NCBI GenBank assembly: GCA_018657525.1
Contig: JABHWZ010000004.1
Location: 26,245 to 90,244 of the forward strand
Direction: 5' to 3'
Source of the DNA: an archaeon
Lineage (GTDB): Archaea > Nanobdellota > Nanobdellia > Pacearchaeales > GW2011-AR1
DNA length: 64,000 bases
Part shown: positions 578-40,408 of the stretch, piece after piece
Layout: every line of letters starts with the position of its first letter
How positions within the stretch are numbered: the stretch's first letter is position 1
Position numbers and translations under genes: made by a program
The notes under the pieces: model-generated
What the model saw: the letters and a program-made list of their open reading frames with translations, nothing else
Databases searched by the model: none
What the model was told of the DNA's origin: nothing

Positions 578-1330
578 TTAAGGAGAATCTATCATAATAT
601 CTTGGACTAAGCCTTGAAAACAATCCTTAAAATGAGCATCAATTCCCAGGTTTCCTTTTTGAAATGGAGCACTATGACCACAATATCTTTTAATATCCAT
701 TACCATTGTATCATATAGTTGAGATGGGAAACCAGAAGGATAACCATTTAACGGAAGCACTTTCTCATTAAGAAACTCTTCTATCAAAGAATATTGTTCT
801 TGAGTAGCATACGGAAACCTTAACTTAACTTCAGATTCTCCCATTTGAGCTTCTATAAAATTTAATAGTATTTCTGTTTTTTCTTCATTTGTAGTAGGAA
901 CTTCCCCCGAGGTTAAAGCAATTCCATTCTCTGGAGTAGGATAAACATATTCTAAAATTGTAAATGGATACATACTCAAATGAATTATACGAGATTCTTT
1001 TTTCCGATTCAATTCTTCTTTTTCAGCTTTCTCTGTTTCTTGTCCTAATCTTCTTCTCTCAGGTTCCCTTTTCTGGTTTAATCTTTTTTTATCTTCTCCT
1101 TTTGCTTTTTCCTTCCGAATAGCATAATTAAATCCTTTTAATGTTACTTCAAATTCACCCCTAGATCCTCTGTGAGTTTGCAACCACATCTCTGGAAACT
1201 CCCGCGAAAAATTGCCTTCCTCGTCCAAAGTTAGAGTTCCTATATCTAATGGTTTATGCTGAGTAGTATAAATTAAGTCTGCCATAAATCTTGTTCGATT
1301 TTGTAACTTATAAAGATAGTTGTATAACAA
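578..1330 (-). CDS. hypothetical protein with central K/E/R-rich low-complexity linker
   Basis: 250-aa ORF in an AT-rich genome where random ORFs this long are unlikely; charged linker KEKAKGEDKKRLNQKREPERRR; no recognised domain. Confidence 0.5.
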   Translation of the reverse strand: MLYNYLYKLQNRTRFMADLIYTTQHKPLDIGTLTLDEEGNFSREFPEMWLQTHRGSRGEFEVTLKGFNYAIRKEKAKGEDKKRLNQKREPERRRLGQETEKAEKEELNRKKESRIIHLSMYPFTILEYVYPTPENGIALTSGEVPTTNEEKTEILLNFIEAQMGESEVKLRFPYATQEQYSLIEEFLNEKVLPLNGYPSGFPSQLYDTMVMDIKRYCGHSAPFQKGNLGIDAHFKDCFQGLVQDIMIDSP

Positions 1331-1414
1331 AATAATCTTCGAAGGAGGGATATTAAATAGGTTTAAGATTTTAGTAAGTTTGGAAAAATGATAATATAAA
1401 ATTTTGTTAAAGTT

Positions 1415-3115
1415 TTATTCTGCTAATTGATACAAACGAACTTTATTTTGTTCAGTGTCAGTATAAGCTAATGTTCCATTGCCAATAGCCATAGACCTCA
1501 TTGCAGCCCATCCACCAGGATGATTTTGCGGATAAAAATGTGTCATTACTTCTCCAGTATTTGCTCCTTTCTTGTAAGCTTTTACACTAGCTACAACTTC
1601 TTCTGGATCTTGAGTTACTGCCCACAATAATCCCTTTCTATCCACGCAATGATTTGAAGGAACACACCCACTATCTAATTGTTCTCCGTTAATCATCTTA
1701 AATGATTTTTCATAAGCTTCTGTTGTTAAACTTTTATCTATTGCTACAATATCATGATTGGATTTTAAGTAAACATGATTTCCATTGATAACAATTCTTG
1801 CAGTATCATCAAAGCTAGTATTGCTATAACCTCCTGAAGGACTAAATCCTAATGGCACTCCAATTAATTTTTTCCCATCAGTTGCAACTAAAGCATTATC
1901 ATAACATTTTGGAAAATCATTTGGTCTAGTTACAAAATAATGAACCCCCTCATCTTCTTCAACTTGCCATATTCCTACGGAAGCCCAACGACCTCTTCTT
2001 GAAAATTCACTTATTCCTTTATCTGCCAATAAATTTAATGCATCTTGAAAGCCACCTTCATTTTCAGTGATTTCTTCTAAATTTCCATTAAATCTTTTTA
2101 ATTGATTATTCCCTCCAGCATAAATTATTCCATTTGAACCAACAGAAATATTTCCTTGAAAACTAGTTGACATCCCAGCAAAACCATCAAAAGCAGCCAT
2201 AATTCCTGTATCTGCAGAAGCAACTTTTCTCCCTGTTTTAATATCATAAGCATTTAATGTTAAATTCCTATCGGCCTCACTCTCACTTTGATATCTTTGA
2301 CCTAAAACGACAAGTTTATTATCTCTATCAAAGGCTATCGCACAAGGAGTAATATCTAAAGATAATGTTCTATCTTTCAATAATGTTGGTTGAGCTATTT
2401 TGTGTTGTGTTTTCAATTCCTCATCAAATTTTGTATGTTGTTCTAAATTAAATTTTCCTTCATTTTGTTTTCTATTAAAAGAATTCCAAACTTCTCTAAC
2501 TCCTTTTTCTTCATCAAAAGGATCTGTTACCTGATATTCAAATCCTTTTTGAGTAATATTTTCAAAATATCCCAATCCCATATTAGTTTCCCTAACCATT
2601 TCTACTAATCTTTCTTTTCCTAATATAATTCCATGTGATTTTTCCAAAACTCCAATTAATAATGTTGCATCAAATCCATTCCCCTCATAGTGTCTTTTAA
2701 AAAAATCTTCTTCTAATTTAATACCTCTTTCTTCAGCTATTCTTTTATAGTCTTCTTGAGATAACATAAACATCTGTTTTGCACCAGCTTCTAATTCTTG
2801 TGCGTCCATTTGTTGAATTGGCCTTCCTAAAACTTTTTCAATTCTTCCAATAGCTTTTTCCTCTCTTTCAGCTCTTGAAACAATTATGGCCACTGGATTG
2901 TTTTCCATCATAGAATCATAAATTCCCTCGCTTTGCCCACAAAAAGAATTTTGAATCTCATCCATAGATACCTCTCGTCCTAATTGAGTTACTAAATGAG
3001 TTAATAATCCTTTGGGTGCTTGAGAAAATAAAGAAGCTTTATCTCGACCACTAGCATAATCTAAGATTCCTTTTCTAATTTGTGTTGATGTATTATCAAT
3101 AACAGTTTCTGACAT
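1415..3115 (-). CDS. hypothetical large protein (566 aa), possible beta-propeller-like C-terminal half
   Basis: long uninterrupted ORF; Gly/Asn-rich repeats (GSNGIIYAGGNN, INGNHVYL) in the C-terminal half; no signal peptide; family not recognised. Confidence 0.55.
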   Translation of the reverse strand: MSETVIDNTSTQIRKGILDYASGRDKASLFSQAPKGLLTHLVTQLGREVSMDEIQNSFCGQSEGIYDSMMENNPVAIIVSRAEREEKAIGRIEKVLGRPIQQMDAQELEAGAKQMFMLSQEDYKRIAEERGIKLEEDFFKRHYEGNGFDATLLIGVLEKSHGIILGKERLVEMVRETNMGLGYFENITQKGFEYQVTDPFDEEKGVREVWNSFNRKQNEGKFNLEQHTKFDEELKTQHKIAQPTLLKDRTLSLDITPCAIAFDRDNKLVVLGQRYQSESEADRNLTLNAYDIKTGRKVASADTGIMAAFDGFAGMSTSFQGNISVGSNGIIYAGGNNQLKRFNGNLEEITENEGGFQDALNLLADKGISEFSRRGRWASVGIWQVEEDEGVHYFVTRPNDFPKCYDNALVATDGKKLIGVPLGFSPSGGYSNTSFDDTARIVINGNHVYLKSNHDIVAIDKSLTTEAYEKSFKMINGEQLDSGCVPSNHCVDRKGLLWAVTQDPEEVVASVKAYKKGANTGEVMTHFYPQNHPGGWAAMRSMAIGNGTLAYTDTEQNKVRLYQLAE

Positions 3116-3383
3116 CTTAAAATATCTATATGATATCGGTTTTTAAGTATTTGTGTTCATTATTACTATAAAATTATCAACACAAAATAATAATGCTAAA
3201 ATATTTTTAAATCGCCACCACCCTATTCGTCACCTGACTTTGATTTTTCAATTTTACCTTCGGTTATTTCATAAAGTCAAATAACTCAATCAAACTGGGA
3301 TGAAATCAAAGATTTCAGAAACATATTTGAATTTAACCACTTCAAATCCGGGAGGATTTATCTGAATAAAATTCAGATAAAAA

Positions 3384-3465
3384 CGCCACCACCCGGAATC
3401 GAACCGGGGCACCCCGAAGGGTCCAGATTAGCAATCTGGTGCAATAACCGCTATGCGATGGTGGC
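3384..3465 (-). tRNA. tRNA-Ser (anticodon GCU), class II with long variable arm
   Basis: hand-folded cloverleaf on the minus strand: acceptor GCCACCA/TGGTGGC, anticodon stem CCAGA/TCTGG, loop TTGCTAA, 14-nt variable arm, T-arm CCCGG-TTCGATT-CCGGG, discriminator G; CCA not encoded. Confidence 0.85.
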
Positions 3466-3516
3466 TTCAATGTTTACCACGCATTCGACAAAGTCGAGAG
3501 GAATTTCCTATTCTGA

Positions 3517-3665
3517 CTATGCGATGGTGGCATAAGTTTGAGTATGATTTGGAGTTTTTAATTTTTCTGGTGCAATAACCGCTACCTGAATTTATTCAGG
3601 TTCTCGTGACCTTTAGGTTACCTGTCCTCAGGTCCTCGTGACCCGAAGGGTTATGCGATGGTGGC
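3517..3665 (-). repeat. partial duplicated copies of the tRNA-Ser 5' end (pseudo-tRNA fragments), one interrupted by a 66-nt insert
   Basis: ctatgcgatggtggc at 3451-3465 (real tRNA 5' end), again at 3517-3531 and as ttatgcgatggtggc at 3651-3665; ctggtgcaataaccgct (3436-3452) repeated at 3570-3586; fragments lack the anticodon and 3' half. Confidence 0.6.
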
Positions 3666-3742
3666 TTATAAAAATATACAATATTTTGAGAATTTAAATC
3701 TTTGCGTTTTGAGGTTTTTTCTTTGGTTAAACATATTTTAAA

Positions 3743-4693
3743 TTATCTCTTCTCCACCAATTCCCTAAACCTTTTCTGTACTCTTTCTATTGGAGTTAAC
3801 CTCGGTTGTCCCTTTCTACGAAATGGAATACAAGTATGACGAAAATCATCAAACCATCCTCCTTTACCATAATCTCCCTTAGATTCAGCACCAGATGCGA
3901 GAGCTCCAACTCTTAACAGATTAAGAGTTCCATGATCAAATGGAGGTCCAGAAAAATTATCTCGAACATATTGCCCCATCATTAAATCAAGTCCATGTTC
4001 TTTTTTCCCAAATTCAAATGTTTTATCTATAATATATGTGACCACATCTTCAGGCAATGCAAACATCTCCCCAACATATTCTGGATGTTGTAATAGTGTT
4101 AAACGCAAAGGACATCTTTTAGCTTGCTCTATTGTCATATTTTCATTAAGTCCAATTAATTTCCCTTCCTTATCTTTTTCAAACCAGTCTTCTAATTGTC
4201 TGGAGTAAACTCCTTCACCACTTAAATTATCCCAAGAGATACCAGTATGAGAATAACTATTTGGAGCCCAATAATCATTTTTTAACTTAAATCCTGAACC
4301 TAAGTTTCCACGAGGATCGCTGTCTCCATCTCTTCTTCTTGCACCTGCGTCTTTGACTTTAGCAATTAAAGACAACGTGCGTTTTCCAATCTCCGGAAGC
4401 ATCCACCCATCAATTGTTCCACAACAAGGCAAGATAATTTTTAATTCTATTTCATTAGATTCTGGATTTTTTCTTGTAGCAATCATAGTTGAAACATCCC
4501 AATAACTTTCAGTCATTTCTGGCATCCCCCTATTTTGAATTGCTAAATATCTCATTCTTGCTTCAGAAGGAAATTCTCCTTCCATGTTTGAAGCATTAGA
4601 AATAAGAGAGAACATACTATCATCTCTATCAAGATTATGCACTTCAAGAGTTTCATTCCCTAACGCAATATCCCATTTTGCCTGTTCTGCCAT
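3743..4693 (-). CDS. hypothetical protein (316 aa)
   Basis: long ORF; conserved-looking patches PCCGTIDGW and GDSDPRGNLGSGF; family not recognised; adjacent to two tRNA genes. Confidence 0.55.
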   Translation of the reverse strand: MAEQAKWDIALGNETLEVHNLDRDDSMFSLISNASNMEGEFPSEARMRYLAIQNRGMPEMTESYWDVSTMIATRKNPESNEIELKIILPCCGTIDGWMLPEIGKRTLSLIAKVKDAGARRRDGDSDPRGNLGSGFKLKNDYWAPNSYSHTGISWDNLSGEGVYSRQLEDWFEKDKEGKLIGLNENMTIEQAKRCPLRLTLLQHPEYVGEMFALPEDVVTYIIDKTFEFGKKEHGLDLMMGQYVRDNFSGPPFDHGTLNLLRVGALASGAESKGDYGKGGWFDDFRHTCIPFRRKGQPRLTPIERVQKRFRELVEKR

Positions 4694-4776
4694 ATAATTT
4701 TTTAAATAATCTACTTTATAATAATTTCTGTGCTTAAAAGTTTTATAGTTTTTTCAAATTATGTTCAAAAAATAAA

Positions 4777-4852
4777 TAGCAGGGGCAGGATTTGAACCAT
4801 GCGACCTCCGGGTTATGGGCCCGACGAGCACTCCAGACTGCTCCACCCTGCT
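4777..4852 (-). tRNA. tRNA-Met (anticodon CAU), initiator-like (A1:U72, three G:C pairs in anticodon stem)
   Basis: minus-strand sequence AGCAGGGTGGAGCAGTCTGGAGTGCTCGTCGGGCCCATAACCCGGAGGTCGCATGGTTCAAATCCTGCCCCTGCT+A closely matches the archaeal tRNAi-Met consensus; one extra nucleotide or bulge in the T-arm. Confidence 0.8.
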
Positions 4853-4943
4853 ATATAAATTCAACTTTCTTTTTACTTATAAAATTATCTATTTTAATTC
4901 TTGACGCTTGTAGGAGGCAACGAAAAAGCGTCTATTCAGATAA

Positions 4944-5005
4944 CGCGATGCCTATGTTCAATGGCCTTCTCTTATCCGAGCTTCGCGATGCCTATGCGCA
5001 ATGGC
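4944..5005. repeat. 22-bp imperfect direct repeat (2 mismatches) duplicating the toxin gene 3' end
   Basis: cgcgatgcctatgttcaatggc (4944-4965) and cgcgatgcctatgcgcaatggc (4984-5005); second copy contains the toxin stop codon. Confidence 0.7.
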
Positions 5006-6363: not shown

Positions 6364-9222
6364 ATGACTTATATCAAAAAATTGGTGATGAAAGGTTTCA
6401 AGAGTTTTGTAAAACAAACAGAATTACCTTTCGCTCAAGGAATAAATGTTGTCTTAGGACCCAATGGTTCTGGAAAATCCAATGTCTCCGACGCACTTTG
6501 TTTTGTCTTGGGAAGACTTTCGGTAAAATCAATGCGCGCAGCTAAGGCCAAAAATTTAATTTTTATGGGTTCTAAATCAGCGTCGCCAGCTAAAGAAGCT
6601 TCAGTAGAAATAATCTTTGAAAATCAAGATAGAATTTTCGCTTTAGATACAAATGAAATTTCAGTAAAAAGAATAGTTAGAAAAAATGGACAATCAATTT
6701 ATAAAATAAATAACGAAACAAAAACACGGCAAGATGTCCTCGCATTACTTGCACAAGTAGGAATTGACCCAAACGGGTTTAACATAATTCTTCAAGGAGA
6801 GATCCAAAATTTTGTAAGAATGCATACAGAAGAAAGAAGAAAAATAATTGAGGAGGTTTCGGGGATATCTACTTACGAATCGAGAAAATCCAAGGCGATT
6901 AAAGAATTAGATAAAACAGAAGAAAGGTTAAAAGAAGTCTTAGCAGTTTTAAGAGAACGAACAGCTTATCTAAATAACTTAGAAAAAGAAAGACAACAAG
7001 CCTTGCGTTATAAAAAACTAGAAAAAGATATCAAAAGATATAAGGCAAGTATAATTTATATCGACCTCTCCAAAAAGAAAAAAGAAGCCAATAGGATTCA
7101 AGGGGATATTCAGATAAAATTAAAAGAGATAGATAAAATAAAAAAATTAATTTTATCTGATGAAATTTTAATGGGTTCTCTTGAACAAAAAATATCTCAG
7201 ATAAATTCTACAATTTCTAATTCTACTGGAGTAGAACAAGAAAAATTAAACACAGAGATTTCTGATATTCGGGCGGAGTTAGCAGGATTAAATGTAAAAA
7301 TAGAAAATTATGAAACAAAGATAATTCAAATACAAAGACAAAAACAAGATTTGCAAGAAAAAGTTAGGGAAGGAATAATTACTTTGAAAGAACTTCAAAA
7401 AGAGTCTCCGACAATTATTAAAAAACAAGAAGAACTTTCTTCAAAAAAACAAGAACTTGAAAAGTTAGAAGAACAGAGAAAAAAGTTTTATATGATTAAG
7501 ACTGAATTAAAATCTATAAGAGAACGGCTTCAAGATAAAAAATCAGTTCTTCAAAGTTACGTCGACGAATCAGCTTTTTTGCTAAAAGAAATAGAATCAA
7601 TAACATTAGAACTTTTTGATAAAAAAACAGATCCAGAAAAATTACATCATTTAAAAATTGCTTTATCCAAAAAAAGAACGCACCTAGATGATTTATCAAA
7701 AAAGGAAATTGAGCTAGACAAAGTTTCACACACAAATGAATACGAAATCTCAAAACAAAATTTAGTCATAGAAAAAATATCAAAAATTGATGTTTGCCCA
7801 TTATGTAAATCAAAAATGACTCCTGAGCATATACATGTTATTGGTTCTGAAGTAAAACCAAAAATAGATTTACTAAAAAAAGAAATTGAAGAATCAGACA
7901 AAGAATTAAATTTAATTTATACTCAAAAAGAAGTTTTAAAAAAAGATATAGATCAGATAGAAACAGAAATAAATAAGAGAGAATCCGATTTATTAAAACT
8001 TTCTCAAATACATGGGAAGACAAAGCAGATAAAAGTGCTTCAAGAAAAAGTTGGATCGATTAAAAAAGAATTAGTTGAATTAAATAAACGGAAAAATTAT
8101 TTAGAAGAAAATTTCGATGAATCTTCAAATGTCGAAACAAAATATGAAACGGCCATGGTGGAAGTTCAAGAAATATCTTCAAGATCTGAGGAAACAATTG
8201 ATTCAGAAATTTCATTTAAACAAAGAGAATTAGAACGCTCAAAGATTACTTTAAAACAATTATGTCGAGATGAACAAGATATTCAAGAAGAATCTATTTC
8301 ATTAAGAAAAGAGATTGAACAAAAAGAACAATTACTCGAAAAAAAGAAAAAACAAGATGAAGAATTGAGCAAACAATTTAAGTCGCTAATTGCTGAAAGA
8401 GATTCATTACAAAATAAGATTAGAGAAATTGTATCTGATTTATCCTCTAAAAAAAATTCAATACATTTTATTGAACAAACAATTAATAATTTTAAAATAG
8501 AAAAAGCAAAGGTCGACGCTGAAACAGAGAATTTAGAAATTGAAATTCTAGAATTCCCTAATGTTGAAATAATGAAAATTCCAAAAGAAACCCTTCAAGA
8601 AAGATTAAATAAATCTCAGGAAATTATTTTAAGAATCGGCTCAGTTAATATGCGTTCTTTAGAAGTTTACGATGCAATAAAAAAAGAATATGATTCAATC
8701 AAAGAAAAAACAGAAATTATTGCTAAGGAAAAAGAAGACATATTGAAAATAATTAAGACAATAGATATCAAAAAGAAGAAAGCATTTATGCAAACCTTCC
8801 ATCAATTAAATGAAATTTTTTCTAGAAACTTTGCGCAAATTTCAACTAAGGGGCAAGTCTCATTAGAATTAGAAGATAAGAAAGACCCTTTCACTGCCGG
8901 AGTAGGAATTGTAGTAAAAACCGGGCATGGGAAATATTTCGACGTTACTTCGCTTTCAGGTGGAGAACAAACAATGGTAGCGCTTTCATTAATCTTCGGG
9001 ATACAAGAATTAAATCCTTACTGCTTTTATGTTCTAGACGAAATCGATGCGGCATTAGATAAACGAAACTCAGAGAGACTTGCAAGTCTTCTAAAAAAAT
9101 ACATGCAGAGAGGACAGTATATAGTAATAACCCACAACGATGAAATCATAAACAGTGCTACAAATATTTACGGAGTTTCAATGCACGATGGAATTTCTAA
9201 AGTAATAAGTTTGAAGATTTAA
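6364..9222 (+). CDS. SMC-family ATPase with coiled-coil arm and central CxxC zinc-hook in place of a hinge (SMC head / Rad50-like hook)
   Basis: N-terminus KGFKSF...VVLGPNGSGKSNVSDALCFVLG (SMC Walker A); C-terminus LSGGEQTMVALSLIFGIQELNPYCFYVLDEIDAALD (SMC signature plus Walker B); about 600 aa of K/E-rich coiled coil; central VCPLCKSK near aa 480; no Gly-rich hinge domain; 952 aa is short for canonical SMC. Confidence 0.85.
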   Translation: MTYIKKLVMKGFKSFVKQTELPFAQGINVVLGPNGSGKSNVSDALCFVLGRLSVKSMRAAKAKNLIFMGSKSASPAKEASVEIIFENQDRIFALDTNEISVKRIVRKNGQSIYKINNETKTRQDVLALLAQVGIDPNGFNIILQGEIQNFVRMHTEERRKIIEEVSGISTYESRKSKAIKELDKTEERLKEVLAVLRERTAYLNNLEKERQQALRYKKLEKDIKRYKASIIYIDLSKKKKEANRIQGDIQIKLKEIDKIKKLILSDEILMGSLEQKISQINSTISNSTGVEQEKLNTEISDIRAELAGLNVKIENYETKIIQIQRQKQDLQEKVREGIITLKELQKESPTIIKKQEELSSKKQELEKLEEQRKKFYMIKTELKSIRERLQDKKSVLQSYVDESAFLLKEIESITLELFDKKTDPEKLHHLKIALSKKRTHLDDLSKKEIELDKVSHTNEYEISKQNLVIEKISKIDVCPLCKSKMTPEHIHVIGSEVKPKIDLLKKEIEESDKELNLIYTQKEVLKKDIDQIETEINKRESDLLKLSQIHGKTKQIKVLQEKVGSIKKELVELNKRKNYLEENFDESSNVETKYETAMVEVQEISSRSEETIDSEISFKQRELERSKITLKQLCRDEQDIQEESISLRKEIEQKEQLLEKKKKQDEELSKQFKSLIAERDSLQNKIREIVSDLSSKKNSIHFIEQTINNFKIEKAKVDAETENLEIEILEFPNVEIMKIPKETLQERLNKSQEIILRIGSVNMRSLEVYDAIKKEYDSIKEKTEIIAKEKEDILKIIKTIDIKKKKAFMQTFHQLNEIFSRNFAQISTKGQVSLELEDKKDPFTAGVGIVVKTGHGKYFDVTSLSGGEQTMVALSLIFGIQELNPYCFYVLDEIDAALDKRNSERLASLLKKYMQRGQYIVITHNDEIINSATNIYGVSMHDGISKVISLKI

Positions 9223-10865: not shown

Positions 10866-12110
10866 TTAGTAGTAACTTTCACCAAACTCTTCAGTCTGGG
10901 AAGGTTTCTTACCAAGTAAAACAATTAATACTACTAATAAAACTAGGAATACAATTCCTAAAATTACTGTTAATACTACAACTGGGTTGCTTGCTACTGA
11001 TTTACCTTCTACGTTCATGCTTAGAGGAACTGTACTTACAAGTTCGTCTCCGGAAAACACACTTACATCGAAAGCGTATGATCCTTCAGCATTTGCTACA
11101 GCACTAACCTTAACTATCTTGCTTGATCCGGCTGGAACAGCAACAACAGCAGATTCAGTACTAGAGGCAACGTCCGCAGAATTTTCTGTAACAACTCTGT
11201 ATACTTTTAATTTGTCAGTTGGGTTAACAACTAATAAATCATATACAGCTTCTTCTCCAGCTGCAATTGTTTTGCTTGCACTTGTCACAATAACGCTATT
11301 TGAAAAGTCGTTTTTAACAACAATTTGTTTAACAGCAACTGTTTCAGAATCTTCATTAGATACTGTAACCTCAACTGTATAAACACCTGCTTCAGCAGAA
11401 TAAGGAACATTCAAGTTGATTACTCCACTTGTACTGTCCTCATCATCGTCATCACAATTACTATCACAATCTTCCATAGCTACTAAGTCACCGAAATAAG
11501 CTGTCTTTTCGACACCTAATTCAACGATTCTAGCAGTTACATAAAGATCATCTAAGTCATTGTATCCTCTGTTTTTCAATACAACTGTTACCGGTAATTT
11601 ATCCCCAGCTTCAACTGTTTGACTAACAGTGATTGACTTAACTTCTGCATTGTATGAAGGTCTTTGAACCATTAAAGTAATTTCTGCTAATTCTGAATTG
11701 TACTCTTTACCATCTATTTCAATAGCTAAAGTTAACTCATCACTAACATCATCTTTAAGTTCATAGGGTACTGAAAGAACCAAAATTTTTGCGTATCTTG
11801 AACCATTTTCAATATCAAATGGAGCAGTGATAGCATCAACTTCGACTTTTTCACCTTCAAGTTCTGCTTCAATAGTAACATCTGTGTCATCATTAGTGGC
11901 AGTAAATTCTACTCGTACAAGAATTTTTTCGCCAGCAATAACTGCCACATCGTTCGCAACTCTCATACCATTAACTTCAACCTTTGCGGAATCTGTGATT
12001 CCAGGGGTTGCAGCAACAGCACTAACAGTAGCCATTAAAACCAGAACACTTGTGATTGCAACAAGAGAAACCAAAAGTTTCTTTGCATTCATTTTTGCTT
12101 TTTGTCTCAT
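10866..12110 (-). CDS. secreted cell-surface (S-layer-like) protein with N-terminal signal peptide and C-terminal transmembrane anchor
   Basis: N-terminal hydrophobic signal (LLVSLVAITSVLVLMATVSAVAA); Thr/Val/Ser-rich beta-rich body; acidic stretch DCDSNCDDDDED; C-terminal TM VVLTVILGIVFLVLLVVLIVLLGKK followed by a short tail; GC higher than surroundings, consistent with high expression. Confidence 0.6.
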   Translation of the reverse strand: MRQKAKMNAKKLLVSLVAITSVLVLMATVSAVAATPGITDSAKVEVNGMRVANDVAVIAGEKILVRVEFTATNDDTDVTIEAELEGEKVEVDAITAPFDIENGSRYAKILVLSVPYELKDDVSDELTLAIEIDGKEYNSELAEITLMVQRPSYNAEVKSITVSQTVEAGDKLPVTVVLKNRGYNDLDDLYVTARIVELGVEKTAYFGDLVAMEDCDSNCDDDDEDSTSGVINLNVPYSAEAGVYTVEVTVSNEDSETVAVKQIVVKNDFSNSVIVTSASKTIAAGEEAVYDLLVVNPTDKLKVYRVVTENSADVASSTESAVVAVPAGSSKIVKVSAVANAEGSYAFDVSVFSGDELVSTVPLSMNVEGKSVASNPVVVLTVILGIVFLVLLVVLIVLLGKKPSQTEEFGESYY

Positions 12111-14008: not shown

Positions 14009-14392
14009 TTATTCGCTAACCTCTTCCCGAATTTCTCTTGCCACTTTTTCAATCCCTCTTAACTTCATACAATATTCCTCTTTTGGAATTTCAATATTGT
14101 TCCTCAATCCCTGTATCTCTCGCCCCAACTTTTCTAAATCGCTTTCTCTTTTCTCTCTTTTCAAATCCCTTCTATAAGCTCCATCCACAAAATCTGCTTC
14201 TGCTTTAAACTCTTCAATAGCTTTGTCCTCATTTCCAGGTTTAGTCAAAAAAAGAAAAGCATAATCTGGATACCCTTCTTCACTCAATTCGTAGCCCAAA
14301 CCTTTACCAAATGAACATGCAAAAACCATCTGCTGAGCTTCAAGAAATCTAACTAAAATTTGCCCCTCTGCATATTCCGGCTTATATTCCAT
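14009..14392 (-). CDS. hypothetical protein (127 aa)
   Basis: ORF; charged C-terminal half. Confidence 0.4.
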   Translation of the reverse strand: MEYKPEYAEGQILVRFLEAQQMVFACSFGKGLGYELSEEGYPDYAFLFLTKPGNEDKAIEEFKAEADFVDGAYRRDLKREKRESDLEKLGREIQGLRNNIEIPKEEYCMKLRGIEKVAREIREEVSE

Positions 14393-14426
14393 AAAATAAT
14401 TGAAGACTTAAACTATTTAATTCTTT

Positions 14427-14867
14427 CTAAATAATTCCCTTCAATTCATTTTCTAAATTATTAACAATCTGCGAGTGCGTGTTCTTAATCATAATTTCTT
14501 GAATGTCTTCTTTTAATCTTCCGTGGCACATAGTTAAATCTGATTCGGGTAATTCAATGCTCCCAAGATTCAAATAACAATCCATTGATTTCCCCTCGAG
14601 AATCTGTCTGTCAAGTCGTCCTTCTTTTATCTGATTAATTGTAACTTCAATAATGCACTTGCCCCCTTCCTTTTCTTTTATTCTATAAAACCACGTCGTT
14701 GAATCAGTATCATAAACAAACTTTGTACGAACACATTTCATCTGATGAGATTTAAAACACGCCAAGTTATCACATCTATAATGAAAAAATATTGTAAAAT
14801 AAATCGAGGCTATCAAAATAATAAAAGCAATTACAATTACAAACATCGTCACCTTTCCTTTTTCCAT
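14427..14867 (-). CDS. membrane-anchored hypothetical protein (N-terminal TM)
   Basis: N-terminal hydrophobic helix VIVIAFIILIASIYFTIFF followed by a Cys-containing domain. Confidence 0.45.
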   Translation of the reverse strand: MEKGKVTMFVIVIAFIILIASIYFTIFFHYRCDNLACFKSHQMKCVRTKFVYDTDSTTWFYRIKEKEGGKCIIEVTINQIKEGRLDRQILEGKSMDCYLNLGSIELPESDLTMCHGRLKEDIQEIMIKNTHSQIVNNLENELKGII

Positions 14868-14908
14868 ATAATAAAATAAATAAGATATTATTTAAAGGTT
14901 TTTGAAAA

Positions 14909-15901
14909 TTATTTATAATCTTCAAGTTCAACATTTTCATAACTGACTTCTTTACCTCGCACAGTTAAGATTCCAGTTTGACCAGAACTTAAACAACCTG
15001 AATTCCAGAATAATTCATCAGTGTATTTTCCTTCTTCTACAACTTCTCCATTAGCATTAGTCGCTCTGTGACCTGTTCCGTGGAAATGCCCACTTATCGC
15101 CTTTTTAATTCCTAATTCTTTATATAATTTAGCCAATCCTTCATTTCCTCTGTTCCCTGTTTTTACTTCAACCGGAACTCCAGCTGCTTTGTATCTTTCC
15201 ACATGGGGCAAGGGAATAACTGTTCCTTTAGCTAAATGATTTTCTTCATCCAAAAAATCTTCAGTTACTTCTCCGAATTTAGTAACATCAACGCAATTTT
15301 CAATTCCTTTAAACTTTCTAGGAACATGACAAAATACAATTGTTTTATCTGGATTTGTAACTAATCTTTTTAAATCATTAATATTTGTATAATTTATTCC
15401 TTTGACTTGTTTACCCTCTTTCAGGGCCACTACATATTCTTCTAATTTTCCAAAAGGAGTAATTCCTTCTTGAGACATTAAATAATTCCCACTTGGCATT
15501 CTTGCGTCGTCTCCCAATTTATATGATCCAGTGCTAGGTCCAAAATCTGCTCCAGGTAAAAATACTAAATCATGTCCATCTGCTTCCACTTTCTGAGGTT
15601 TATTCACATTAATTAAATTATCACATTCTCCTCCTAATTTTTCCATTACTGACTCAAATGCTAACATCATATCATGACCTGCTGGCTGGACATACGCTTC
15701 TAAGCCACTTTTACCAACTCTCTCTAGAACTTCTGCAATATTTCTTTGACTTTCATCTAAACTCTTTCCAACTTCTGCTAAATCACCATTTAAAATAATC
15801 TTCTCAATTCCCTTCTCTTTAAAAGCTCTAAGAGACCTCTCCAGATTTTCTAAACTACCATGAATATCTGAAATAACCCCGTATTGCACTTCTTTTATCA
15901 T
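14909..15901 (-). CDS. calcineurin-like metallophosphoesterase
   Basis: motifs VISDIHGS (D-x-H), LNGDLAE (GD), and GHFHGTGHR (GH-x-H) in the correct order. Confidence 0.7.
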   Translation of the reverse strand: MIKEVQYGVISDIHGSLENLERSLRAFKEKGIEKIILNGDLAEVGKSLDESQRNIAEVLERVGKSGLEAYVQPAGHDMMLAFESVMEKLGGECDNLINVNKPQKVEADGHDLVFLPGADFGPSTGSYKLGDDARMPSGNYLMSQEGITPFGKLEEYVVALKEGKQVKGINYTNINDLKRLVTNPDKTIVFCHVPRKFKGIENCVDVTKFGEVTEDFLDEENHLAKGTVIPLPHVERYKAAGVPVEVKTGNRGNEGLAKLYKELGIKKAISGHFHGTGHRATNANGEVVEEGKYTDELFWNSGCLSSGQTGILTVRGKEVSYENVELEDYK

Positions 15902-40175: not shown

Positions 40176-40334
40176 TTAACAACTTTACAATAATAAAAGA
40201 TTATGAATTTTCATTTAAAAAGCTTTCTATAATCTGGGAAATATGCTTTAAATTGAATATTTGCGAAACAAAAGCTTTTTTAAAGTATTTATCCCCATTT
40301 AATTTATTATTTGGGTTTAGTATTCAAATAATAT

Positions 40335-40408
40335 GGCTTCGTAGCTCAGCCTGGCAGAGCACTAGACTTTTAATCTAGGTGTCGCGGGTTCAAATCCCGT
40401 CGAGGCCA
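40335..40408 (+). tRNA. tRNA-Lys (anticodon UUU)
   Basis: hand-folded: acceptor GGCTTCG/CGAGGCC (one G-U), D-arm GCTC-AGCCTGGCA-GAGC, anticodon stem CTAGA/TCTAG with loop CTTTTAA, T-arm GCGGG-TTCAAAT-CCCGT, discriminator A. Confidence 0.85.

Follow-up and report, generated by a model that had tools for sequence, protein, structure and literature searches.

The window, by which we mean the whole 64,000-nt stretch of archaeal DNA that was analyzed, contains one intact tRNA-Ser(GCU) gene surrounded by exact copies of pieces of its own termini. We favor, with some reservation, a reading of this cluster as a mosaic of footprints that recombination has left around a single working tRNA-Ser(GCU) gene, and not as a second, split or intron-bearing tRNA. 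The evidence comes from the repeats themselves, from the position of the probable promoter of the gene, and from the state of the same locus in related genomes.

Exact copies of tRNA-Ser pieces around an intact gene

The gene and the features assigned to its duplicated pieces are as follows.

3384..3465, minus strand: intact, intron-less tRNA-Ser(GCU), 82 nt (ARAGORN; Rfam tRNA, 58.8 bits)
3517..3531, minus strand: fragment B, exact copy of tRNA positions 1-15 (repeat search, shuffles, alignment)
3566..3584, minus strand: fragment A, second piece, exact copy of tRNA positions 13-31 (local alignment score 38)
3585..3651, minus strand: 67-nt insert within fragment A (repeats, palindrome, fold)
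3652..3665, minus strand: fragment A, first piece, exact copy of tRNA positions 1-14 (repeat search, shuffles, alignment)
3691-3698, minus strand: weaker TATA-like box TTTAAATT upstream of the first piece of fragment A
3209..3223, minus strand: fragment C, copy of the 3'-terminal 11 nt of the tRNA (3213-3223) with a T-rich flank (repeat search, shuffles, alignment)
3224..3383, minus strand: 160-nt element between the tRNA 3' end and fragment C (similarity to a segment of locus L014)

Five exact pieces of the gene recur nearby, namely positions 1-15 (3517-3531), 1-14 (3652-3665), 13-31 (3566-3584), 44-53 (3642-3651) and the last 11 nt (3213-3223), all of them well above chance expectation. Local alignment of the tRNA-Ser with its flanks gave scores of 38, 30, 28, 22 and 20, compared with a 95th percentile of 17-18 in shuffled sequence; TATGCGATGGTGGC occurs three times (at 3452, 3518 and 3652; shuffle expectation 0.10, with 0 of 100 shuffles reaching three) and CGCCACCACCC twice (at 3213 and 3384; expectation 0.06). 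Repeat search, shuffles and local alignment thus agree with the initial annotation that the copies of the tRNA-Ser termini around the intact gene are real, exact and non-random. Its 15-nt 5' copy at 3517-3531 corresponds to tRNA positions 1-15, and its 11-nt 3' copy at 3213-3223 was likewise recovered, the match extending with the flank to 14 of 15 nt between 3209-3223 and 3380-3394. Several boundaries had to be redrawn. The second 5' copy, annotated as 15 nt at 3651-3665, comprises 14 nt (3652-3665) because base 3651 differs; the D-arm copy placed at 3570-3586 exists and is a 19-nt copy at 3566-3584 (tRNA 13-31); and the insert between these two exact tRNA pieces is 67 nt long (3585-3651), not 66 nt. 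The internal repeat tcgtgacc is present as well, its second occurrence lying at 3636-3643 and not at 3635-3642, and the true direct repeat is 16 nt (3596-3611 and 3628-3643).

Every fragment is a 100% match to the present tRNA-Ser allele of the window, and the duplicated segments lie on the outward side of the intact gene, the 5' pieces upstream and the last 11 nt downstream. The whole intergenic region is identical base for base in a second assembly (an ENA contig, which may share its source with the window), and the flanking proteins are present in more than 40 blocks of a public collection, which argues against an assembly artefact. Exact-protein look-ups for three flanking genes retrieved one gene arrangement only (24 contigs, collapsed by shared neighboring genes).

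Apart from the 16-nt direct repeat, the 67-nt insert of fragment A contains a palindrome (3585-3600) and, directly abutting the 1-14 copy, 10 nt duplicated from the variable arm (tRNA 44-53, 3642-3651); it folds with -31.9 kcal/mol (z = -2.8). The palindrome CTGAAT..ATTCAG occurs only twice in the 64 kb, inside this insert (3586-3599) and just past the gene (3362-3376), with an expectation of 0.05. The second piece of fragment A extends as far as the 5' strand of the anticodon stem, and the promoter region of fragment B adjoins it directly. An nhmmer search with the insert yielded no match to the rest of the window or to the relative loci compared. Among known classes of small elements, an IS630-type MITE was considered for the insert and rejected (a TA duplication is present, the inverted termini are absent), and the only match to integron attC sites was GTTAAAT, expected by chance in AT-rich DNA. 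No C/D or H/ACA sRNA boxes were seen by eye in the inserts.

A probable displaced promoter and 5' leader

Between fragment B and the gene lies a spacer in which we delineated the following features.

3466..3516, minus strand: 51-nt spacer, body of the probable 5' leader (fold; homology to the spacer of L013)
3499-3509, minus strand: hairpin P2
3485-3497, minus strand: hairpin P3
3476-3484, minus strand: anti-segment AUGCGUGGU, complementary to positions 4-13 of the tRNA and of the fragment
3466-3475, minus strand: 10-nt linker
3556..3563, minus strand: TATA-like box AATTAAAA, 25-32 nt upstream of fragment B

The relatives used for comparison are Woesearchaeota-like "Nanoarchaeota" loci (L003-L026), with L013 representing the sister species. 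In L003, L004, L005, L018, L023 and L026, a TTTTAAAA-like box is located at -32..-23 from G1 of the tRNA-Ser, and fragment B occupies the same position relative to its box as tRNA G+1 does in these relatives. The box precedes the fragment, not the tRNA, in the window, L013 and L021, and in neither the window nor L013 does a comparable box stand at the corresponding distance from the tRNA itself. AATTAAAA is probably the promoter of the whole leader and tRNA-Ser. Given that the box is now upstream of fragment B, the intact gene is most likely read as a precursor of ~148 nt; the tRNA-Ser is probably transcribed with a 66-nt hairpin leader, from a predicted start and with predicted subsequent removal of the leader.

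The leader of the window folds with -20.1 kcal/mol (z = -3.6), and a second leader fold has z = -3.0. Its 51-nt spacer is homologous to that of L013, with different stem sequences in both P2 and P3; an nhmmer search with the spacer retrieved nothing elsewhere. Equivalents of fragment B are found in L013 (14 nt, matching the acceptor of L013 itself) and in L021, and since fragment B and the spacer are common to the window and the sister species, they are old. The acceptor stems of the window and L013 differ in 3 of 7 positions, and the anti-segment of L013 matches the fragment of L013. The duplex of the window anti-segment with its own 5' segment has an energy of -10.2 kcal/mol, compared with -5.3 and -7.1 with the segments of other species. 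The L021 leader pairing (-6.2 and -7.5 kcal/mol) is weak and unspecific, and scores better against the window sequence. Comparison of the leader helix between the window and L013 reveals double changes in 3 of the 4 variable pairs, a count from a set of only three sequences in which L021 is ambiguous; a MAFFT alignment of the three leaders misaligned the hairpins and was not used for counting pairs. The anti-segment also resembles the 3' end of each species' own tRNA. By reading of the sequences, no more than 4 of 7 pairs can form between the L021 fragment and the 3' strand of the tRNA, so that the fragment is not an exon there; as it can no longer pair with this strand, the mature 5' end must be that of the downstream copy.

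A 160-nt element downstream of the gene

TTTTT follows the tRNA-Ser at its 3' side, and the 160-nt element begins with T5 and a palindrome (3357-3381), with fragment C forming its outer border. The element is similar to a segment downstream of the tRNA-Met of L014 (z = 5.9; 0 of 300 shuffles), which in turn is similar to segments of L019 and L021 (z = 4.6-8.3); compared directly with the latter two, the window element yields no match (z = 1.0 and 1.6). The shared blocks are GTTAAATT, CCGAAGGTAAAAT and AAGyxAGGTGxCGAxT. The copies that follow tRNA-Met comprise 15 nt in L014 and 13 nt in L021 and in each case derive from the local tRNA, and the L019 segment carries no terminal tRNA copy. Homologous elements are thus found at different tRNAs (tRNA-Ser in the window, tRNA-Met in L014), with a terminal copy of the local tRNA except in L019. 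A consensus fold of the four 3' elements is weak (-6.1 kcal/mol). To judge from these similarities, the 160-nt element belongs to a family sited beside tRNA-Met in the relatives.

The locus in related genomes

The genes that border the fragments are as follows.

3743..4693, minus strand: orphan gene, 316 aa, between tRNA-Met (4777-4852) and fragment A (no Pfam or PHROGs match)
1415-3115, minus strand: orphan gene, 566 aa (no Pfam or PHROGs match)
578-1330, minus strand: orphan gene, 250 aa (no Pfam or PHROGs match)
12-458: DUF5684 gene

The genes for RNase HII and SMC are syntenic across the relatives, whereas those around tRNA-Met and tRNA-Ser differ in every species. The 566-aa and 250-aa orphans (578..3115) sit between fragment C and the DUF5684 gene; in L013, a DUF5684 homolog is found directly 3' of the tRNA-Ser. 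The slot of the 316-aa orphan is occupied in L013 by an unrelated 88-aa DUF3850 gene, and no homolog of the 316-aa protein other than itself was found among 5.8 billion proteins, nor any in GTDB genomes, so that we regard this orphan as a lineage-specific filling of a variable slot. Fragment A, which has no counterpart in L013 or L021, is by the same comparison lineage-specific and adjoins this lineage-specific gene. Fragment C is specific to the window lineage; L013 has neither it nor fragment A, and also lacks the 160-nt element. The tRNA-Ser of the window is 97.6% identical to that of L004 and unlike those of the species closest by RNase HII in the D loop and T stem.

Empty sites, in which promoter and tRNA are contiguous and no fragment is present, were found in L014, L018, L003, L004 and L005. 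In L019, a perfect 48-nt direct repeat of the 3' part of tRNA-Ser bounds an island of 4.4 kb; the anticodon loop that precedes the distal copy has no intron, whereas the L019 gene itself contains a 67-nt intron. A survey of 24 tRNA genes of the clade identified outward-facing terminal duplicates of at least 11 nt in 6 of them, and the longest match among 96 controls (wrong side or tRNA middle) was 10 nt. The tRNA-Leu of L005 has an 85-nt tandem repeat with a period of 146. DNA scans with tRNA positions 14-43 retrieved one Woesearchaeota genome and three metagenome contigs, none of them with fragments. Taken together, the comparison marks the tRNA-Ser locus as a recombination hot spot.

Search for an integrase or a mobile element

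In agreement with the initial annotation, no integrase was found in the window: none of the 45 ORFs scanned (most ORFs of at least 120 aa) had a Pfam recombinase match, and the four flanking orphan ORFs had no match in PHROGs. Neither did the L019 island yield an integrase, a transposase or a recognizable mobile-element gene. Scans of IMG/VR revealed no virus or element carrying tRNA-Ser pieces, and scans with tRNA 3' halves gave no match. The 19-mer matches lie inside a phage structural gene or in one unrelated contig, and the 15-mer matches in phage contigs of 56-64% GC; both sets look like chance and were discarded, and the 21 matches of the 16-mer insert repeat were taken as chance uninspected. 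The inserts between the repeats amount to 51, 67 and 160 nt only, with no visible terminal inverted repeats, and the duplications vary in length (11-20 nt). A dif-like site of a tyrosine recombinase (an inverted repeat made of the anti-segment, 6-13 nt and the tRNA 5' end) was considered and rejected because its arms change with the tRNA sequence, unlike a protein site. The proposal that the copies are att-site scars divides into two parts: recombination scars in general are backed by the relatives, while no missing element behind the fragments was identified.

A model of the locus and its alternatives

The favored model starts from direct observations (the repeats, their statistics, presence and absence in the relatives, the homologies and the box positions) and adds an enzyme or element that we infer. 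DNA would have been inserted repeatedly at the ends of the tRNA-Ser by an integrase-type or target-duplicating mechanism, each insertion keeping the gene intact and marking the outer border of the new DNA with a copy of whichever terminus was hit; these inserts would later have been reduced to 51-160 nt, or would consist of orphan genes. Three layers can be distinguished. Fragment B and the 51-nt spacer form the old layer, in which the ancestral promoter box now lies upstream of the fragment, most likely giving the ~148-nt precursor; the 66-nt leader would open with a decoy of the tRNA 5' end that folds back on the complementary anti-segment, and 5' processing would subsequently cleave the leader off at the true G1. 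The second layer is the lineage-specific fragment A (1-14, 67 nt, 13-31) beside the orphan gene, and in the third, fragment C closes the 160-nt element of the tRNA-Met-adjacent family.

Several observations speak against this model. Neither an integrase or element gene nor an IMG/VR carrier of tRNA-Ser pieces was found; the inserts are far too small for elements; the terminal repeats vary between 11 and 20 nt; and, with three different tRNA segments duplicated, several events or enzymes would be needed. Furthermore, a simple old scar does not predict the 100% match of fragment B, because the acceptor stems of the window and L013 diverge at 3 of their 7 positions, and the tandem repeat at the L005 tRNA-Leu looks more like plain duplication.

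The strongest alternative, to which we assign a minor share of the probability, is that fragment B, the spacer and the anti-segment are a selected RNA module: a maintained, minihelix-like leader that holds the only promoter of the gene and is needed for folding or 5' maturation of the tRNA-Ser. Such a module might offer a handle for processing, or might switch between two states, the anti-segment being paired with the decoy in one and with the real 5' end in the other. The helix is kept (12 bp in L013, fewer in the window) despite differences in three of the four variable pairs (A-U/G-C, C-G/G-U and A-U/U-A), the species' own duplexes (-10.2 and -12.1 kcal/mol) are more stable than the cross-species ones (-5.3 to -7.3), P2 and P3 retain the same shape with different sequences, the promoter box stands before the fragment in three species, and the leader folds have z-scores of -3.6 and -3.0. 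However, only two species are informative, L021 being weak and unspecific; the leader is absent in L014, L018, L019, L023 and L026; and we know of no enzyme that requires such a leader. The apparent covariation could also arise without selection because the anti-segment resembles the tRNA 3' end, in which case the ends of the leader would be copies of the two ends of the tRNA itself, a reading that fits the pair changes equally well.

Somewhat less probable still is local duplication followed by decay, that is, slippage, template switching or unequal crossing-over and then internal deletions, with no involvement of mobile DNA. The leader retains a 5' copy together with a degenerate segment resembling the 3' end, as expected of an internally deleted tandem copy; the start of fragment A, where tRNA 1-14 is joined directly to 44-53, resembles a copy without 15-43; the L005 tRNA-Leu provides an example of tandem repetition; and no integrase was found in the ORFs of the window or in the L019 island. 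Nevertheless, the fragments are 100% identical and sharp-edged and the intervening sequences are unrelated to the tRNA, a pattern not to be expected from gradual decay. This reading also has to contend with the homology of the 160-nt element to one that sits beside a different tRNA with a terminal copy of that tRNA, with the lineage-specific orphan genes exactly at the fragment borders, and with the 4.4-kb island between the L019 repeats.

The possibility that the locus encodes a functional disrupted tRNA is very slight. Under this reading, 3566-3665 would represent 5' exons with a D-loop intron, to be ligated to a 3' part in a split or multi-intron gene, or fragment B would be exon 1 and the next 66 nt an intron. 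Fragment A would indeed splice to exactly tRNA positions 1-31, its 3' junction has a relaxed, half bulge-helix-bulge look (a 4-bp helix, AACC/GGUU, beside one 3-nt bulge, AGC, with no proper bulge at the 5' junction, by hand inspection only), introns of 62-68 nt occur in tRNA-Ser genes of relatives, fragment B is paired with the 3' acceptor strand in the minimum-energy structure of the 148-nt precursor, and the tRNA genes of the clade look leaderless, as in the RNase P-free Nanoarchaeum equitans (PMC10100707). Against this, the window contains no anticodon loop, T arm or 3' strand to complete fragment A, and apart from the gene and the 11-nt fragment C, no 3' half with the acceptor strand TGGTGGC exists in the 64 kb. 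When the folds were inspected by hand, no strict bulge-helix-bulge was seen at the candidate junctions, nor anything comparable at fragment B; the true introns of the relatives are at 37/38, not in the D loop; and an intact intron-less gene lies 100 nt away. ARAGORN with introns allowed (-i), the check proposed in the initial annotation, reported no extra gene in the window and did recover the real introns of L019 (67 nt) and L026 (62 nt), and Rfam searches of the region 3000-5000 at E-values up to 10 detected no extra family or partial tRNA. The suggestion of degenerate split or intron-bearing copies is thus unsupported as far as a working gene is concerned, the copy at 3570-3665 ending at tRNA position 31.

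A bolder combination of these ideas, which we put forward as a conjecture more apt to fail than to hold, is that the tRNA-Ser gene is promoterless and expressed only via a decoy-headed, minihelix-like 66-nt leader that tracks the acceptor stem, and that the 51-160-nt inserts are tiny non-autonomous elements homing to tRNA ends in DPANN archaea and duplicating 11-20 nt. If the promoterless-gene part were true, it would imply a selected processing module or an unrecognized route of 5' maturation in an otherwise leaderless-looking lineage.

Relationship to known systems

tRNA genes are classic landing sites of mobile DNA, and mobile-DNA events at archaeal tRNA genes have been proposed as an origin of tRNA introns and split tRNAs. 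Casposons and some other transposons target tRNA 3' ends with target duplications of 14-15 bp. Similarly, the 11-20-nt duplications described here straddle tRNA ends, and short homologous elements occur at different tRNAs, each with a local copy; unlike casposons, these elements are 50-160 nt long, have neither terminal inverted repeats nor a Cas1 or polymerase gene, and produce duplications of variable length. The sublocations within tRNA genes that integrases use were reportedly treated by Williams in 2002, and the L019 island, whose repeat begins at the anticodon loop and reaches the 3' end, is consistent with the classical anticodon-loop integrase class.

Direct att repeats of archaeal viruses and plasmids include the 44-bp repeat of SSV1 in tRNA-Arg and those of the pNOB8 type (PMC3293823). 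As in these systems, the gene has been restored, with a copy of its terminus at the far border; unlike them, the window has repeats of 11-19 nt, no element between these, no partitioned or adjacent integrase, and no attP-bearing element that could be found. Disrupted archaeal tRNA genes comprise those with non-canonical introns, split tRNAs as in N. equitans and Caldivirga, and recently split tRNAs (Chan et al. 2011, PMC3218864). The window organism is from the same broad group as N. equitans, and its fragment A resembles such disrupted genes in having a 5' portion that ends at the anticodon-stem boundary and a D-loop interruption, but it lacks a 3' partner, a complementary leader and trailer and a strict bulge-helix-bulge, and an intact gene is present.

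The closest precedent is Caldiarchaeum subterraneum, in which a 5' fragment of tRNA-Thr(GGU), tRNA-Thr-F, upstream of the intact gene has been explained by integration of a mobile element; the two are separated by 1.8 kb that encodes a recombinase (Sugahara et al. 2012, PMC3293823). Both loci have a 5' fragment upstream of an intact gene as a direct repeat, in both cases fragmentation takes place within a short evolutionary time, and in both groups an intron may be present in the gene but not in its fragment, here seen in L019. The window differs in the size of its inserts (51-160 nt), the lack of a recombinase, the duplication of three tRNA segments and the presence of the probable promoter at one fragment. 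By analogy, the published model of tRNA fragments derived from mobile-element integration (PMC3293823) fits the window locus.

Together with its relatives, the locus forms a compact series in uncultured DPANN archaea, comprising an empty site, an island with 48-nt repeats and an intron difference, miniature inserts with terminal copies at their borders, and a probable case of promoter displacement by insertion, in which the gene would now be read through a hairpin leader. If the leader or the small elements are functional, the series bears on tRNA 5'-end formation in reduced archaeal genomes and on the survival of tRNA genes under repeated invasion; if they are not, it is an ordinary but well-documented scar field. 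In comparison with the systems above, the window locus is a variant of a known phenomenon.

Organization of the tRNA-Ser cluster

The window (GC about 32%) is part of the chromosome of an uncultured DPANN archaeon and encodes EF-1alpha, EF-2, SMC, RNase HII, ribosomal protein S7 and ribonucleotide reductase. The RNase HII homologues, 70-83% identical, carry the NCBI names 'Nanoarchaeota archaeon' or 'archaeon', and a Woesearchaeota MAG is the one GTDB genome with a match to tRNA-Ser positions 14-43. Both ARAGORN and Rfam call the genes for tRNA-Ser(GCU) (3384-3465, minus strand), tRNA-Met (4777-4852) and tRNA-Lys (40335-40408), and the sequence of the tRNA-Ser locus is identical in a second public assembly (ENA). 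The repeat cluster that the initial annotation described around the tRNA-Ser gene is confirmed, with coordinates corrected by small amounts only; all tRNA-Ser repeats in the window are exact and far exceed the number predicted by chance.

Layout of the cluster on the tRNA strand, in order of descending coordinates
3691-3698, weak TATA-like box upstream of fragment A
3665-3652, fragment A, first piece (tRNA positions 1-14)
3651-3585, 67-nt insert in fragment A
3651-3642, start of this insert, a copy of tRNA positions 44-53
3584-3566, fragment A, last piece (tRNA positions 13-31)
3563-3556, TATA-like box within the 34 nt separating fragments A and B
3531-3517, fragment B (tRNA positions 1-15)
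3516-3466, 51-nt spacer from fragment B to the intact gene
3465-3384, intact tRNA-Ser gene
3383-3224, T5 and 160-nt segment 3' of tRNA-Ser
3223-3209, fragment C (last 11 nt of the tRNA and T-rich flank)
beyond fragment C, start region of a 566-aa orphan gene

The palindrome CTGAAT(3-4 nt)ATTCAG, a candidate protein site or hairpin, occurs at only two sites in the 64 kb (3357-3381 and 3585-3600), both adjoining an edge of tRNA-derived sequence; in relatives, palindromes are also present directly 3' of the tRNA-Met T-run.

Terminal tRNA duplicates at a variable locus

RNase HII and SMC synteny is kept in all relatives fetched, and the genes amid RNase HII, tRNA-Met, tRNA-Ser and a tRNA-deacylase gene are different in each species (groups in the RNase HII tree: (window, L013), (L014, L016), (L021, L019), (L023, L026), L018). 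The order in the sister species, L013, is tRNA-Met, an 88-aa DUF3850 gene, a promoter box, a 5' fragment, a 49-nt spacer, tRNA-Ser and a DUF5684 gene. Compared with it, the position of the DUF3850 gene is taken in the window by a 316-aa orphan and fragment A, and the 160-nt segment, fragment C and the 566-aa and 250-aa orphan genes are inserted ahead of the DUF5684 gene. Among 5.8 billion proteins, the only homologue of the 316-aa protein is itself, and none of the orphan genes (250, 566 and 316 aa) has a Pfam or PHROGs match. The tRNA-Met/tRNA-Ser region is a predicted recombination hot spot. The three orphan genes are consecutive (578-4693), and the content of this slot differs in every relative.

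For the 24 tRNA genes in the compared loci, we sought copies of the 5' end upstream and of the 3' end downstream, within 400 nt, counting duplicates of at least 11 nt. Six genes had such duplicates, and the longest match among 96 control comparisons (wrong side, or tRNA middle) was 10 nt. Terminal duplicates at tRNA genes are common in this clade.

tRNA genes with terminal duplicates of at least 11 nt
Window tRNA-Ser, duplicates of at least 11 nt
L013 tRNA-Ser, 14-nt duplicate, 64 nt upstream
L014 tRNA-Met, 15-nt duplicate
L014 tRNA-Arg, 13-nt duplicate (20 nt with flank)
L021 tRNA-Met, 13-nt duplicate
L005 tRNA-Leu, 85-nt tandem repeat

Downstream of L014 tRNA-Arg (6445-6520, minus strand), a 29-nt insert has the 20-nt repeat (9 nt of tRNA 3' end and 11 nt of flank) on both sides, and a T-run terminator is present after the second copy but not after the first. 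At L005 tRNA-Leu (11205-11291, minus strand), the final 17 nt and about 68 nt of downstream flank form a tandem repeat (period 146 nt) that extends about 290 nt downstream of the gene; this more closely resembles simple tandem duplication, or else a mini-element present as two tandem copies.

The 160-nt segment of the window resembles the L014 segment between tRNA-Met and its 3' copy (z = 5.9, 0 of 300 shuffles), which in turn resembles the L019 and L021 segments (z = 4.6 to 8.3); compared directly with the latter two, the window segment gives no match (z = 1.0 and 1.6), and with nhmmer alone it stays below significance. The proposed homology with L014 is based on a global alignment together with collinear blocks (GTTAAATT, CCGAAGGTAAAAT and the final 17 nt). 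The terminal copy has the sequence of the adjoining tRNA in the window, L014 and L021. There are two candidate explanations: movement of the segment with duplication of its new target, or the involvement of related elements whose att cores differ.

The reading of the fragments as att-type scars is supported in outline by the relatives. No element with a matching attP (the element-side attachment site) was found in IMG/VR. The exact 19-mer TAGCGGTTATTGCACCAGA is present in four related IMG/VR phage contigs (L007-L010), in L009 inside a 183-aa ORF within a run of large co-directional genes; this match was judged to be due to chance. The absence of an integrase from the window holds for the 45 ORFs scanned (most of those of at least 120 aa), none of which matches a Pfam recombinase family. 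In L018, a tyrosine-recombinase gene (14349-15194; Phage_integrase, possibly XerA-like) is found past SMC, at a distance of about 7 kb from tRNA-Ser, and adjoins no tRNA fragment.

Fragment B as the start of a probable promoter-bearing leader

A TTTTAAAA-like box is located 23-32 nt upstream of G1, the first nucleotide of tRNA-Ser, in L003, L004, L005, L018, L023 and L026, and at equal distance from the window tRNA-Met. In three loci (window, L013 and L021), it is the fragment that has the box at this distance; the window and L013 have none at that distance before tRNA-Ser proper. Judging by where the motif lies relative to the fragment, the probable transcription start is G1 of fragment B or a nucleotide close to it, with read-through across the spacer into tRNA-Ser. 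Upstream of tRNA genes in the window (4853-4900, 40290-40334) and in relatives, an AT-rich box terminates 21-24 nt before position 1, which is immediately preceded by TAT. The motifs suggest that in this clade, as in Nanoarchaeum equitans, tRNA transcripts have a very short 5' leader or none.

The window and L013 spacers are homologous, with TAGTC.G.ATA, CTCTCG and CGAATGCG in common, and each has two hairpins (stems AGGA/UCCU vs GGG/CCC, and UCGAC/GUCGA vs UCGUUC/GAACGA). The 3' anti-segment of the spacer (AUGCG-UGGU in the window, AUGCG-CUGA.GC in L013) is complementary to positions 4-13 of both fragment and tRNA; three of the four variable pairs in its helix with the fragment are changed on both sides, and own-species leader duplexes are better by about 5 kcal/mol than cross-species ones. 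The leader of L021 is shorter, its fragment (GCCUCAG) no longer equals the tRNA (GCCCAGU), and by eye only four of seven acceptor pairs are possible with it; judging from the sequence, the downstream copy in L021 must be the mature tRNA 5' end, and by parsimony we infer the same for the window.

For the matched changes, compared in three sequences only, two explanations remain: selection on a leader hairpin, and descent of both leader ends from the tRNA's own two ends. In line with the latter, the anti-segment resembles the tRNA 3' terminus of each species, as in an internally deleted tandem copy. The main unexplained point is that fragment B exactly equals the present window allele: because the acceptor stem differs at three of seven positions between the window and L013, and yet this identity is exact, a simple old scar does not explain it.

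Exchange of tRNA-Ser alleles

The window tRNA-Ser (3384-3465) is 97.6% identical to that of L004 (942-1023), differing in a single base pair, whereas the L004 tRNA-Met is clearly more distant. The species closest by RNase HII share a D loop and T stem unlike those of the window tRNA-Ser. Acceptor types also cross the RNase HII tree: L021 and L023 have GCCCAGU, and L013 and L003 have GCCUCGG. This pattern fits an exchange of tRNA-Ser sequence between lineages, which may have proceeded via recombination with foreign copies.

No support for a split or intron-bearing tRNA

The alternative that the fragments are degenerate split or intron-bearing tRNA copies is unsupported: at E values up to 10, Rfam detects no tRNA besides the intact tRNA-Ser at the locus, and neither does ARAGORN in intron mode, in a run that recovered the 67-nt and 62-nt tRNA-Ser introns of L019 and L026; the pieces of fragment A, if spliced, would yield positions 1-31 only, and the 64-kb window contains neither an anticodon loop nor a T arm or another 3' strand for it. 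In folds inspected by hand, the 3' junction of fragment A forms at best half a bulge-helix-bulge motif and fragment B shows no such motif.

The tRNA-Ser gene of L023 has, by eye, a 68-nt intron at the same position as in L019 and L026. These tRNA-Ser(GCU) anticodon-loop introns (62-68 nt) terminate in ..AGGT(AA/TGCA)AATA in L023 (minus strand, about 4460-4608) and L026 (374-517), and default ARAGORN overlooks both genes; several tRNA-Met genes of the clade also contain long introns.

Comparison with known integration at tRNA genes

That tRNA genes are recombination targets at which terminal fragments are left behind is known, and the locus is a variant of this phenomenon. Two features stand out: the predicted promoter-bearing decoy leader, common to the window and L013, and the very short inserts, which form a family and have copies of tRNA ends at their borders. 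In L019, a perfect 48-nt direct repeat of the 3' part of tRNA-Ser lies 4.4 kb downstream of the intron-bearing gene.

Features of the L019 locus
2360-2511, tRNA-Ser(GCU), interrupted after position 38 by a 67-nt intron
6886-6933, distal 48-nt copy of the tRNA-Ser 3' part

The 4.4-kb island comprises five genes, including those for a dCMP deaminase, a PHP protein and a kinase-like protein; none of the five encodes an integrase. The arrangement is the classical signature of an island that would have integrated at a tRNA gene. Directly before the distal copy is an intron-less anticodon loop, so that L019 is like Caldiarchaeum, where a tRNA fragment and the corresponding gene likewise differ by an intron (PMC3293823).
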